A stretch of DNA of 64,000 bases, from the IMG/VR virus record IMGVR_UViG_3300027969_000040, one strand, 5' to 3'. This document shows, piece after piece, positions 8,865 through 57,480 of this stretch. Position 1 is the stretch's first letter. Each line of letters opens with the position of its first letter. Made by a program: the position numbers and the translations under genes. This stretch comes from a virus. Its lineage: Duplodnaviria > Caudoviricetes. Below the pieces are notes generated by a model. It was not told the DNA's origin, did no database searches, and saw only the letters and a list, made by a program, of their open reading frames with translations.

Positions 8865-9590
8865 CTATTGATTTTTCTGATTGATTATAGTTTGATTTAC
8901 TGACCCAATTAAGGATGGTGATAACATTTTGAGTATATCTAACATCTTAATATCATTAAGATATATGAAGCCGCCTTGAAAATATTTATATCTATCCGAT
9001 AGCCTCTCCAATATAAACTTTGATATTTTTATCTCTCCATCTAAATTTTTTATATAATTTACTAGTGCATGTCGATCCTCAAGTTTGATGAAACCTTCTT
9101 TTAAGCGTACCTTATACGGATGATCACTTTCTTTTTTAGTGATAATAAAACCTTGATCTAACAATTTTTTGTCCGAATCAAATTCTAACAACGAAACCGA
9201 ACTCAATCTAGTTTTATGCTCGCTTAAAATTTCATTAGCTACATTATACAAGTAAGATTCTGAATCTGCAAATACAGTGAAAGAATAATAACTAATTCTA
9301 AATTTTACTTTAACATTGGTTGGTGTTGTATAATATTTGTAAAAGTCTTCTAGTGTTTTTAAACTTGCATTTTGATTTTTGTATCTGACAAATCTGTCTG
9401 TGTTTCTATAATTAAAAGCCTTCACAGTTGATGGTAGTTTATCAGCAGTTTTACAATTAATCAAACATCTTGCACCTTGTAAATTATAAGTTAAACTGTA
9501 ACAAAACTCGTTAAAAAATTTCTTCTTAGTATAAAGAAATCGCAAGTCTCGATTTAGTTTACTCCACTCTGATAAATCCATTTTTGTCAA
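8865..9590 (-). CDS. Hypothetical protein
   Basis: 241-aa ORF overlapping the 3' end of clpA. Confidence 0.75.
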   Translation of the reverse strand: MTKMDLSEWSKLNRDLRFLYTKKKFFNEFCYSLTYNLQGARCLINCKTADKLPSTVKAFNYRNTDRFVRYKNQNASLKTLEDFYKYYTTPTNVKVKFRISYYSFTVFADSESYLYNVANEILSEHKTRLSSVSLLEFDSDKKLLDQGFIITKKESDHPYKVRLKEGFIKLEDRHALVNYIKNLDGEIKISKFILERLSDRYKYFQGGFIYLNDIKMLDILKMLSPSLIGSVNQTIINQKNQ

Positions 9591-11862
9591 CTGATGGTAC
9601 CCCTTCGATCAATAGCTGCATGTTATAGGCAATTACAGTAAAAGTCAAATCTTTTTCCTGGCAATCTACATTAATAATAGATCCGTTTTCCAAATTCTCA
9701 AACAATATTTTTTTACTAATAGGTACTTTAATCAAATCGTTAATTACACGATTCAATGGCCTTGCGCCCATTCTCTTATCAAACCCTTTTTCAACTAGTA
9801 AGTCAACGGCACGTTCAGTTAGACGCAATTTAATTTGTCTATCGGATAGTAAATCATTGATTTCTGACATAAATTTAGCGACAATCTTTTTCATGCTAAA
9901 CTGATCTAATGTTTTAAACTTACATATAGCATCAAGTCTATTTCGAAACTCGGGTTTAAAAAATTCCTTAACTGCCTTATCGTCCTCACCTGTGCGCTCT
10001 AACGATTGACCAAATCCAATGGTATTGCGTTCGTTATCGGCAGCGCCTAGATTACTAGTCATAATTAAAATAGAGTTACGTGCATCGGCTTTTTTACCAT
10101 TGCTACCAGTAATAAATCCTTCATCCATAAATTGCAACAAGATATTTGTTACATCAGGATGAGCTTTTTCAATCTCATCTAATAGGATAATTGAGTTTGG
10201 ATTTTGTTCTAAAGCACTAATTAATAATCCACTGCCAGCTGCTGAATCTTCATATCCAACATACCCAGGAGGTGCACCGATTAACTTAGCCATGCTATGT
10301 TTTTCTTGGTACTCACTCATATCGTAGCGAACCATCTTCATTGACAAATTGGTTGCAAGTAACTTAGCTAATTCAGTTTTTCCAGTACCAGTTGGCCCCA
10401 AGAATAAAAAGCTACCAATTGGTTTGTTAATTGATTTAATACCTGCTTTACTTACGAATATTCGCTCTAACACAGAAGTTACGGCATCCTCTTGACCGTA
10501 CAGCCCTTGGTTTATATTGATTTCTAAATTAACAAGGCTATTAGTATTATCACTGCCAATTTGATCAACTGGTATCTTAGTAGCGCGACTTAGTGCTTCT
10601 ACAATCTGCGATTTGCCTAATACAAAGTCTGAATCTTGCTTGATTTGTATTTTTTGTTTAGCACATGCAGTATCCATTAAGTCTATTGCTTTGTCTGGCA
10701 GCTTTTTGTCAGGTTGATATCTAATGCTATAATCAACGGCGGCATCAATTGATTCATCTGAAATTTTAATGTTATGGAATTTTTCAAAATTTAATCTTAT
10801 ACCTTTAAGTATAAGTTTCGAATCACTTGCACTAGGTTCGTCTACAGTTAATCGTTGAAATCTACGCATCAATGCTCGATCTTTTTCGAAGCTTTGTACA
10901 TATTCATCCCATGTAGTAGATGCGATAACTTTAATCTTGCCCTTAGTTAATGCAGGTTTAATCATGTTACTAAAGTCGACCGAGCTAGAAGAGCCACCGC
11001 CAGCGCCACGCATCTGATGTGCCTCGTCGATGAATAGTATAGTTTTTTCTTTCATTATCAATGCTTTGATAACATTCTGAAATTTTTCTTCAAACTCGCC
11101 TCTATACTTACTTCCAGCTAATAAGCTACCTATATCTAAGTTATACACAGTATATGACTTTAGATATTCTGGTACATTACCGTCTACTATATTTTTAGCA
11201 AGTCCTTCTGCTAACATTGTTTTACCAACGCCCGGATCACCAACTAATAGGATATTGGCTTTATTACGTTTAGCCAATATATGAGACATTTCTGTTAGTT
11301 CAAACTCTCGTCCAATAATAGGATCAAGTTCACCTTTCTTGGCCAAGTTGTTCAGATTTGTACAAAACTCATCTAACATTTCTTCGGCACGCTCTGCATT
11401 TATATTTGGAGAATTTAAATCCGACTCGGTATTAAATTTTTTGTATAATTCCATTAGGGTTGCACGATCAATTCCGTACTTTAACATAAAATAGAATGCA
11501 TAGCTATTTGATTCCATTGAAATGCTTAATACCAAGTCAATGATTTTAATACGGTTAGATCCGTGAAACAACACTTGTGTTAGTGCTCTATTAAATACAC
11601 GTTCTAACGTTTGTGTTTTTCTTGGAGTATGCGATTCTTCGACTACTAAATGTGTTTGTGCATTTAAATAATGGCTTAGTTCACCCACCAGGCCGTTGAC
11701 ATCAAAATTTAATTTTATCAATATCTTCTTAAAAGGACTATATTGAAAAATAGCCAATGCTAGATGTTCTAAAGTTACATATTCATGTTTAAGCGACTTA
11801 GCAGCCTCGCTGGCTTTAAGTATAATTTCTTCAATCTCTGCATTTGGTCTCATTGACGACAT
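9559..11862 (-). CDS. clpA: ATP-dependent Clp protease ATPase subunit, ClpA-type
   Basis: Clp N-domain (HEYVTLEHL); Walker A motifs GDPGVGKT and GPTGTGKT; Walker B motifs FIDEAH and LLDEIEK; IGF loop (TIGFG); no ClpB middle domain. Confidence 0.92.
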   Translation of the reverse strand: MSSMRPNAEIEEIILKASEAAKSLKHEYVTLEHLALAIFQYSPFKKILIKLNFDVNGLVGELSHYLNAQTHLVVEESHTPRKTQTLERVFNRALTQVLFHGSNRIKIIDLVLSISMESNSYAFYFMLKYGIDRATLMELYKKFNTESDLNSPNINAERAEEMLDEFCTNLNNLAKKGELDPIIGREFELTEMSHILAKRNKANILLVGDPGVGKTMLAEGLAKNIVDGNVPEYLKSYTVYNLDIGSLLAGSKYRGEFEEKFQNVIKALIMKEKTILFIDEAHQMRGAGGGSSSSVDFSNMIKPALTKGKIKVIASTTWDEYVQSFEKDRALMRRFQRLTVDEPSASDSKLILKGIRLNFEKFHNIKISDESIDAAVDYSIRYQPDKKLPDKAIDLMDTACAKQKIQIKQDSDFVLGKSQIVEALSRATKIPVDQIGSDNTNSLVNLEININQGLYGQEDAVTSVLERIFVSKAGIKSINKPIGSFLFLGPTGTGKTELAKLLATNLSMKMVRYDMSEYQEKHSMAKLIGAPPGYVGYEDSAAGSGLLISALEQNPNSIILLDEIEKAHPDVTNILLQFMDEGFITGSNGKKADARNSILIMTSNLGAADNERNTIGFGQSLERTGEDDKAVKEFFKPEFRNRLDAICKFKTLDQFSMKKIVAKFMSEINDLLSDRQIKLRLTERAVDLLVEKGFDKRMGARPLNRVINDLIKVPISKKILFENLENGSIINVDCQEKDLTFTVIAYNMQLLIEGVPSVDKNGFIRVE

Positions 11863-56635: not shown

Positions 56636-56687
56636 ACCAATATTTACCCGTCTAATTAATTTTAAATATTACACTTATGTTACATAA

Positions 56688-56711
56688 GAAGAAACCCGCC
56701 GAAGCGGGTCC
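56688..56711 (-). terminator. Intrinsic terminator of the tmRNA gene
   Basis: ACCCGC-TTCG-GCGGGT-TTCTTCTT on the minus strand. Confidence 0.85.
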
Positions 56712-56755
56712 TTGCTATTTTTGGTGACAAGGTATAACTACCTCGGGTCTAGCAA

Positions 56756-56857
56756 TCAAGCGGCTAGTAAAACTGCTGAGTCATTAGCGGCTTGACGTCC
56801 AAAACGGAAGTTTTTGCCCATAGTAACTTTTACAGTACCTGTTGTATTTGCGTTTGC
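56756..56857 (-). other. tmRNA tag reading frame ANANTTGTVKVTMGKNFRFGRQAANDSAVLLAA*
   Basis: Translated from the GCA after TAAAT to TGA; 33 sense codons. Confidence 0.75.
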
Positions 56858-57013
56858 ATTTACGGATTTTGCGTCTGCAACCAAGCTTCGTCTTTCTATG
56901 CTATGAGCATAGCGACTAAAGTTACCTTAGTCCTGCGGCTTCTGCATTGCCGAGCTGTCCACTCATTTACTTGTTGCTCTGTCGAAACCAGGGCAGGCCC
57001 ATCAAAAAGAAAC

Positions 57014-57148
57014 TTACCATTTACCAATTGGACAATGTGCAAATGGTATTAAAGTTTTAGCCGGCATGTAACATCCGCACTTGTTGCAAACTTTTCGATC
57101 AGTATCAAAATGCTCACATACTATACAAATTGTGTACTTGTCGTTCAT
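57014..57148 (-). CDS. 44-aa Cys-rich protein inside the tmRNA intervening sequence (MNDKYTICIVCEHFDTDRKVCNKCGCYMPAKTLIPFAHCPIGKW)
   Basis: Manual translation; AAGGA SD; CxxC..CxxCGC..K..CP.GKW pattern (DUF6171-like). Confidence 0.8.
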   Translation of the reverse strand: MNDKYTICIVCEHFDTDRKVCNKCGCYMPAKTLIPFAHCPIGKW

Positions 57149-57243
57149 GAATTCCTTTTTGGTGGACCTGGCGGGAGTCGAACCCGCGTCCAGAACACTT
57201 TTCTCTTTGCTTCATACAGCAATAACTTTTATTTATCTCCAAA

Positions 57244-57480
57244 TCAATGTCTCACAGCAAACATACTGCTGATCATTGCTCTTACTAAAACTAAATCACT
57301 TTCACATGTAACTTCTATAGGTTCATCAAGATCTTCATCATCTTCCCATGCTTCCTTTGGAAACTGTAAAAAAGTAAAGATAGTTCTAAAGGTCACAGTC
57401 CTGCCTTGCGTGTAAGCCAACTCTATCACATCCACTATAGAATTCACCACCTGCTGTGTCTTGAAATCTAGCGGAGTCAT
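57244..57480 (-). CDS. Hypothetical protein
   Basis: 78-aa ORF. Confidence 0.65.
   Translation of the reverse strand: MTPLDFKTQQVVNSIVDVIELAYTQGRTVTFRTIFTFLQFPKEAWEDDEDLDEPIEVTCESDLVLVRAMISSMFAVRH

Follow-up and report, generated by a model that had tools for sequence, protein, structure and literature searches.

A small cysteine-rich protein gene within the spacer of a phage two-piece tmRNA gene, and the recurrence of this layout among phage permuted tmRNA genes

Main finding

A phage circularly permuted (two-piece) tmRNA gene carries, in the intervening segment (IVS) that is inferred to be removed during maturation, a real 44-codon gene for a six-cysteine protein, and the same layout recurs with many unrelated small genes in other phage tmRNA genes. 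The DNA analyzed, referred to here as the window, is a 64,000-nt stretch of viral sequence (IMG/VR record IMGVR_UViG_3300027969_000040), and the tmRNA lies on its minus strand. Loci compared in this study are designated by L followed by a number. In an earlier note made from the sequence alone, the two permuted halves, the spacer with its Shine-Dalgarno sequence (SD) and intact ORF, the TAAATA box and the terminator were described, and our analysis confirms this observation to the base. The interpretation offered in that note, in which tmRNA maturation releases a mini-mRNA and thereby couples a small metal-binding protein to tmRNA processing, is only partly supported. The permuted gene, the conserved SD-led ORF, the plausibility of metal binding, the single promoter-like box and terminator, and the absence of a published description from the literature we could search all hold, whereas the release of a translated mini-mRNA is not shown and the proposed coupling has no direct support. 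The note also treated the arrangement as a one-off, but it is one case of a common layout in phage permuted tmRNAs.

Anatomy of the tmRNA gene

The Rfam model tmRNA_permuted (RF04321) matched positions 57221-56756 (-) at 88 bits against a gathering score of 47 (E 1.5e-15), covering model positions 1-213 in full, and was the only Rfam family found in the window. Independently, ARAGORN called a permuted tmRNA at 56665-57252 (-), with the 3' tRNA-like half preceding the 5' half. The minimum-free-energy (MFE) fold of 57225-56972 was more stable than every one of 200 dinucleotide shuffles (z = -3.96) and contained the T arm and a seven-pair acceptor stem that includes the G3:U70 alanine identity pair. 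The 33-codon tag frame is unusual in length, although this length is shared with L077 and L034. An SmpB partner is presumably supplied by the host. The features of the locus are listed in Table 1.

Table 1. Features of the permuted tmRNA locus, in window coordinates
Feature	Position	Strand	Supporting observations
Promoter-like -10 box (TAAATA, T4-late-like)	57230-57235	-	About 6-9 nt upstream of the conserved start of the acceptor piece
Acceptor piece	57160-57224	-	5' hairpin; T arm 57187-57171; 3' acceptor strand 57170-57164, pairing with 56994-57000 and including G56998:U57166 (G3:U70); discriminator A57163; CCA 57162-57160; Rfam, ARAGORN and MFE fold agree
IVS, 159 nt, inferred to be absent from the mature tmRNA	57001-57159	-	Lies between the CCA end and G1; treated as an unaligned insert by the Rfam model
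5' strand of the IVS closing stem	57150-57161	-	Contains the SD AAGGA (57157-57153); pairs with 57003-57014 in the MFE fold
44-codon gene for a six-Cys protein (DUF6171-like, PHROG 13558)	57014-57148	-	ATG at 57148; stop TAA 57016-57014
3' strand of the IVS closing stem (anti-SD, U-rich)	57003-57014	-	Followed by the conserved TGAT leader before G1
5' tRNA-like domain of the coding piece	56974-57000	-	Starts at GGGCCTG with G1 = 57000; predicted RNase P site between 57001 and 57000
Tag reading frame	56756-56857	-	33 codons plus stop, ending in LLAA, with a resume consensus (ARAGORN)
Intrinsic terminator	56685-56711	-	Stem 56711-56692; 8-bp stem with 5 G-C pairs and a T tail; same hairpin present in L120

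In many related loci, TAAATA or TATAAT sits at the same fixed distance upstream of the acceptor piece, which supports a promoter there. However, TATAAATA was not enriched in the window (5 found against 9 expected), so usage of a T4-type late promoter is not supported and we do not assign a promoter class. No sigma-70-like promoter was found inside the acceptor piece or the IVS on the coding strand.

The spacer ORF is a real gene

An exhaustive HMMER search of 1.84 billion cluster representatives returned 1208 homologous, mostly viral proteins at E <= 0.001, the best at 1.2e-15. An alignment of 27 of them revealed nine invariant positions, C8, C11, C21, C24, C26, K31, C39, P40 and W44, all of which are kept in the window's protein. 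The protein matches PHROG 13558 (unknown function) at E 9.8e-13. Its similarity to Pfam DUF6171 (PF19668), at 18.5 bits and E 0.0028, falls below the curated cut-off of 27, so it is not a formal member of that family; nevertheless, all 27 aligned relatives hit PF19668 at E <= 0.01 (best 5e-9), and the nearest ESM-Atlas clusters are viral clusters carrying PF19668.

AlphaFold2 predicted a confident, compact model (pLDDT 91.6), but a Foldseek comparison with the PDB gave no match and VIA-align across 48,161 chains gave no Z >= 2. Similarly, a profile search of PDB sequences yielded only non-significant hits to zinc-ribbon proteins (bL32, eL37 and YfgJ; E >= 0.15). Metal binding is therefore a reasonable inference from six invariant cysteines, not a result.

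A close relative, the 2.5-kb lake metagenome contig L120, carries the same arrangement. Identity between the window and L120 was 100% in the 5' tRNA-like domain, 95.6% in the IVS, 89.4% in the upstream flank plus acceptor piece, and 45% in the rest of the coding piece, where L120 has a different, 10-codon tag. The 3' tRNA-like part of the acceptor piece is identical by eye. Within the ORF, four synonymous and two conservative replacement changes give a dN/dS of 0.10 (binomial p = 0.013), although this and the other dN/dS estimates reported here rest on few substitutions. These data indicate that the gene travels with the tRNA-like module and is kept under protein-level constraint.

The layout is general in phage permuted tmRNAs

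The survey of phage permuted tmRNA genes for spacer ORFs, a check proposed in the earlier note, showed that the arrangement is widespread. The 32-nt T-arm/acceptor sequence of the window occurs in at least 119 IMG/VR viral contigs but in only 11 of 185,579 bacterial species genomes (GTDB); among these 11, ARAGORN called a tmRNA in 10, all one-piece, and none in the eleventh (L125). The generality described here refers to phage genes. Among the viral loci, 102 yielded permuted tmRNAs, with IVSs of 53 to 255 nt that fall into two clean classes: those with no ATG in the first 25 nt, and those with an ATG at position 7-15 and an ORF covering 81-95% of the IVS.

After clustering at 70% identity, 18 of 57 IVS clusters held a sense ATG-ORF filling at least 80% of the IVS, against 0 on the antisense strand and a mean of 0.56 (maximum 4 in 200) in dinucleotide shuffles. 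For IVSs of 110 nt or more, the proportion was 12 of 16. In a second IMG/VR sample, obtained with a different T-arm/acceptor 32-mer, 6 of 34 new clusters were coding on the sense strand against 1 on the antisense strand, and all three IVSs longer than 170 nt were coding.

The ORFs are unrelated to one another, and 10 of 18 encode single-helix hydrophobic peptides of 19-75 aa. PHROG and Pfam scans of nine other IVS ORFs gave only weak hits, such as DUF6552 at E 1e-4 for L051. Other homologous IVS-ORF pairs give dN/dS values of 0.16-0.66, whereas a few IVS ORFs, for example that of L003, look frame-shifted relative to the terminal stop. Near-identical tmRNAs with the same tag carry coding, different-coding or non-coding IVSs, which indicates that the slot turns over quickly.

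A covarying stem closes the spacer

The first and last roughly 12 nt of the IVS pair with each other and extend the acceptor stem. Across the 57 clusters, cognate ends pair at -10.4 kcal/mol on average against -4.0 kcal/mol for non-cognate combinations (p = 7e-25), demonstrating covariation. In coding IVSs the 5' strand of the stem contains the SD core (12 of 18 coding against 4 of 39 non-coding clusters, p = 2.8e-5), and closing stems are weaker in coding IVSs (-6.65 against -12.1 kcal/mol). In the window, SD positions in the isolated IVS have a predicted probability of being unpaired of only 0.02-0.06, while the start codon is open.

Of the 18 ORFs, 14 stop at a TGA one nucleotide before G1 (binomial p = 1.4e-4 against one third), and three, including that of the window, stop 13 nt earlier, exactly before the 3' strand of the stem. 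However, a TGA or TAA triplet at -4 to -2 is present in 56 of 57 IVS clusters, non-coding ones included, and is therefore a general leader feature that ORFs run into. A conserved sub-class, the L112 and L230 groups, has no stop before G1 at all.

Expression in lake metatranscriptomes

Three lake metatranscriptome runs contain contigs of this tmRNA's coding piece. One contig matches 56653-56991 at 100% identity over 339 nt, and in two runs the contigs end at 56991, 9 nt inside the predicted RNase P site. No contig covers 57005-57138, and a second search with the IVS alone listed no RNA run that holds it. This shows that the tmRNA is expressed in nature and is what excision with rapid IVS turnover would give, although these are low-depth contigs, which say nothing about translation and in which absence is not proof of absence.

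Origin of the cassette

The nearest homologues of the 44-aa protein are free-standing genes upstream of permuted tmRNA genes with non-coding IVSs: in L132 and L135 (68% identity, about 0.35 kb upstream), L136 (60%, about 0.9 kb), Xanthomonas phages X1 and BUDD (46.5%, about 0.5 kb) and Stenotrophomonas Menderavirus phages (45.2%, about 1.1 kb). This suggests a short-range relocation of a neighboring gene into the IVS. It is not a general association, since none of 239 other permuted-tmRNA loci carries a DUF6171-like gene nearby, in a search whose positive controls worked. Most family members, for example those in cyanophages, were not found near a tmRNA, and only 2 of the 80 best DUF6171-like viral loci have one within 1.5 kb.

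Interpretation

We consider it likely, though not certain, that the excised IVS serves as an expression slot for a small protein gene. In this view, one transcript runs from the -10-like box to the terminator and contains, in order, the acceptor piece, the IVS and the coding piece; the tRNA-like domain forms by pairing sequences on either side of the IVS, and a 12-bp closing stem loops out the 135-nt ORF, which encodes a probably zinc-binding protein. This protein would most likely be made from the nascent or unprocessed precursor, before the anti-SD strand is transcribed or while the weak AU-rich stem breathes, although it may also be made from the IVS RNA released when RNase P cuts at G57000 and 3' maturation exposes CCA at 57160, an RNA that would then be short-lived. 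Processing of permuted precursors by RNase P and a 3' tRNA-type activity is the established view (PMC3985003), and excision here is inferred from it. As the slot holds many unrelated small genes, or none, in related phage tmRNAs, its main benefit is probably compact, promoter-free expression where insertions do not damage the tmRNA, rather than a function specific to this protein.

Our analysis itself establishes the anatomy, the reality of the gene and the selection on it, the generality of the layout, the stem covariation and the natural expression of the coding piece; co-transcription, the cleavage sites, the release of the IVS as a mini-mRNA, translation itself and its timing, and metal binding are inferred. 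The paired SD would hinder initiation after folding.

A less likely possibility is functional coupling, in which the gene is placed in the IVS so that its expression is gated by tmRNA maturation or by trans-translation. The SD, masked by the closing stem, would permit only a co-transcriptional pulse of translation or would require 3' trimming of the excised IVS, as with hok-type mRNAs. In many relatives the stop codon sits 1 nt from the RNase P site, so slight 3' nibbling would make a non-stop message whose product is tagged by the same tmRNA, and messages of the L112 and L230 groups would be non-stop after RNase P cleavage. The proximity of the nearest free-standing homologues to permuted tmRNA genes and a ClpA-like unfoldase encoded by the phage are also consistent with this reading. 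However, the leader triplet is equally present in non-coding IVSs, the ORFs are unrelated and dispensable among near-identical tmRNAs, the 239 other loci lack a DUF6171-like gene nearby, and in the window the stop lies 13 nt before the IVS end, not at the cleavage site.

In its boldest form, which the data do not rule out but which we regard as improbable, the spacer would be a dedicated, exchangeable cassette slot for small proteins (membrane peptides, zinc-type mini-proteins) whose translation is timed by tmRNA biogenesis, with the SD free only until the anti-SD strand is transcribed or again after 3' trimming. With the stop codon at or beyond the RNase P site in most cassettes, processed messages would become near-non-stop or truly non-stop, and the tmRNA would police the product of its own spacer. 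That would be a new mode of gene expression, an mRNA born inside, and regulated by, a ribosome-rescue RNA.

It is also unlikely that the ORF is a silent passenger, foreign DNA in a tolerant spacer that is transcribed but not translated, like the S23p ORF in the Coxiella 23S rRNA IVS, which is apparently not translated in vivo (PMC4990558). The absence of the IVS from RNA contigs, the predicted pairing of the SD, the documented analogue and the frame-shifted appearance of a few IVS ORFs are compatible with this reading. Conversely, the intact ORF with all invariant residues, the excess of synonymous changes against L120, the strong association of an SD and an ATG at canonical spacing with ORF presence, the strand asymmetry and large excess over shuffles, and the weakened stems of coding IVSs argue against it.

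An independent gene between two separately transcribed RNA genes is very unlikely: no supporting evidence was found, no promoter-like site lies in the acceptor piece or the IVS on the coding strand, only 11 nt separate CCA from the ATG and 13 nt the stop from G1, the closing stem spans the ORF and covaries, and the layout matches the permuted tmRNA model end to end. A chance ORF, which its short length and the AT-rich sequence might suggest, is refuted by the homology searches and is further opposed by the shuffle and antisense controls.

Permuted tmRNA spacers have been treated as disposable linkers. If they routinely encode small proteins, annotation pipelines that mask tmRNA genes will systematically miss a class of phage small proteins and membrane peptides, and tmRNA precursors become bifunctional RNAs, both coding and non-coding, offering a natural system for studying how translation and tRNA-type processing compete on one transcript. 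The recurrent placement of the SD in the closing stem and of the stop at the RNase P site offers a testable link between a gene's expression and the ribosome-rescue machinery. Isolated phages such as the Stenotrophomonas and Xanthomonas phages, which carry the same tmRNA lineage with the DUF6171-like gene next to it, provide an experimentally tractable entry point.

Comparison with known systems

Circularly permuted tmRNA genes occur in Alphaproteobacteria, some Betaproteobacteria, cyanobacteria and aquatic phages (RF04321; PMC11915505, PMC9004378, PMC3985003), and 53 phage-borne two-piece tmRNAs, mostly aquatic, are already known among isolates (PMC9004378). The window's gene shares with them the order of acceptor piece, IVS and coding piece, the tRNA-like domain with G3:U70 and CCA, a tag frame ending in LAA, and the presumed processing. 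However, the IVS has been described as a sequence absent from the mature RNA, and the 2025 tmRNA database paper singles out only a tRNA-Ala gene and a repetitive element as unusual IVS contents, with no mention of ORFs (PMC11915505). Full-text searches for ORFs in permuted tmRNA spacers and for DUF6171 found nothing relevant in the literature we could search. Here, and in about a fifth to a third of the sampled phage IVS clusters, the IVS is an SD-led protein gene.

The closest documented analogue is the IVS of Coxiella burnetii 23S rRNA (PMC4990558), likewise a stem-closed segment of a stable-RNA precursor that is excised without re-ligation, leaves a fragmented but functional RNA, carries a small ORF and is rapidly degraded. 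That excision is by RNase III rather than by tRNA-type processing, with IVSs of this type located in 23S rRNA helix 25 or 45, and the S23p ORF lacks evidence of in vivo translation and is decaying. In contrast, the window's ORF lies in a tmRNA, has a good SD, is under purifying selection and belongs to a family found as ordinary genes elsewhere, and the slot holds many unrelated genes.

Group I introns with homing-endonuclease ORFs in tmRNA and tRNA genes (PMC11915505) also nest a protein gene in a removed segment of a tmRNA gene. However, no intron family was matched anywhere in the window at the gathering threshold, there is no splicing or ligation, the ORF is not an endonuclease, and the segment lies between CCA and G1 rather than in the T loop.

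Free-standing DUF6171/PHROG 13558 proteins of cyanophages and of Stenotrophomonas, Xanthomonas and Acidovorax phages have the same C-x2-C ... C-x2-C-x-C ... K ... CP-x3-W pattern and similar length, but only in the window and in L120 is the gene inside a tmRNA IVS.

Finally, in tRNA-punctuated polycistronic transcripts, such as those of the mitochondrial tRNA punctuation model or bacterial tRNA-mRNA co-transcripts like the tufB operon, an mRNA is delimited and released by RNase P and 3' tRNA processing of flanking tRNA-like structures, as would be the case here. In the present layout, both flanking ends belong to one tRNA-like domain that forms around the mRNA, and the mRNA's SD and 3' tail pair with each other.

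Intervening segments and their reading frames across permuted tmRNA loci

In the loci L112, L113, L016 and L083, whose tmRNA genes have an IVS of 101 nt, and in the L230 group of loci, where the IVS is 107 nt, we observed a conserved family of IVS ORFs that begins MKYTALCPSCF and ends KHKCFSD exactly at the IVS end. This ORF has no in-frame stop before G1, so it reads 9-87 nt into the tRNA-like domain with variable tails, and after RNase P cleavage it would be a non-stop message. The family occurs in tmRNAs with two different T-arm/acceptor sequences. The longest gene in the sample, at 635 nt, was found in locus L066, where the 5'-domain call made by ARAGORN looks misplaced: an SD-led 83-aa membrane-type ORF starts 13 nt after CCA, so the true IVS is probably about 265 nt.

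In RNA data, a metatranscriptome contig from run X8, which belongs to a relative with 4 differences, runs from the acceptor piece 108 nt past CCA into a different, non-coding-type IVS. This contig represents either an unprocessed precursor or DNA carry-over in an RNA library.

Coordinates of the features described in this section
Feature	Sequence	Coordinates	Strand
ClpA-like protein gene	Window	9559-11862	-
Tag reading frame	Window	56756-56857	-
Permuted tmRNA gene compared with L120	Window	56665-57252	
Corresponding region of L120	L120	1448-1910	
DUF6171-like gene	L132	1667-1801	
DUF6171-like gene	L135	1501-1632	
DUF6171-like gene	L136	62-190	
DUF6171-like gene	L134 (Xanthomonas phage X1, OQ427096)	120380-120508	
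Longest gene in the sample	L066	1383-2017	
Contig of run X8, as aligned	Window	57155-57226	

Tag peptides and mosaicism

The tag of the window's tmRNA is unusually long, at 33 codons, a length shared with L077 and L034; long tags were also noted in L066 and L079. Many phage permuted tmRNAs in the sample have tags of 23-32 codons that fall into a few recurring sequence families ending in a normal ALAA-type degron. A comparison with L120, a lake metagenome contig carrying the same arrangement, revealed a mosaic breakpoint just after the 5' tRNA-like domain. The acceptor piece, the IVS gene and the 5' domain are 96-100% identical, whereas the tag-bearing remainder is only 45% identical and its tag has 10 codons instead of 33.

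A ClpA-like gene and genes neighboring the tmRNA

A 767-aa protein encoded in the window, with two AAA+ regions, matches PHROG 4871 “ATP-dependent protease” at E 1e-239 and is ClpA-like. The phage thus carries both a tmRNA and an unfoldase of the kind that degrades ssrA-tagged proteins.

Small DUF6171-like genes sit 0.35-1.1 kb upstream of permuted tmRNA genes in several phage lineages, namely in the loci L132, L135, L136, L133 (Stenotrophomonas phage Bhz51) and L134, although this linkage is absent in 239 other tmRNA loci. In Xanthomonas phage X1, the ORF is not annotated. In locus L030 and in many other loci whose upstream flank ends in ...CAGCCTGC(C/T)TAA, a cold-shock-protein-like gene of the CspA type, whose product begins MVTGKVKWFN, ends immediately upstream of the permuted tmRNA. 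These loci form a large subset and have no promoter-like box in between, which suggests co-transcription of csp and tmRNA.

Cassettes shared between tmRNA lineages

Homologous 25-aa hydrophobic IVS peptides, both with a C-x2-C motif near the N terminus and ending in HFFF, occur in locus L008 of the first sample and locus L308 of the second, in tmRNAs with different T-arm/acceptor sequences and different tags. The cassette is therefore conserved, or moves between tmRNA lineages.
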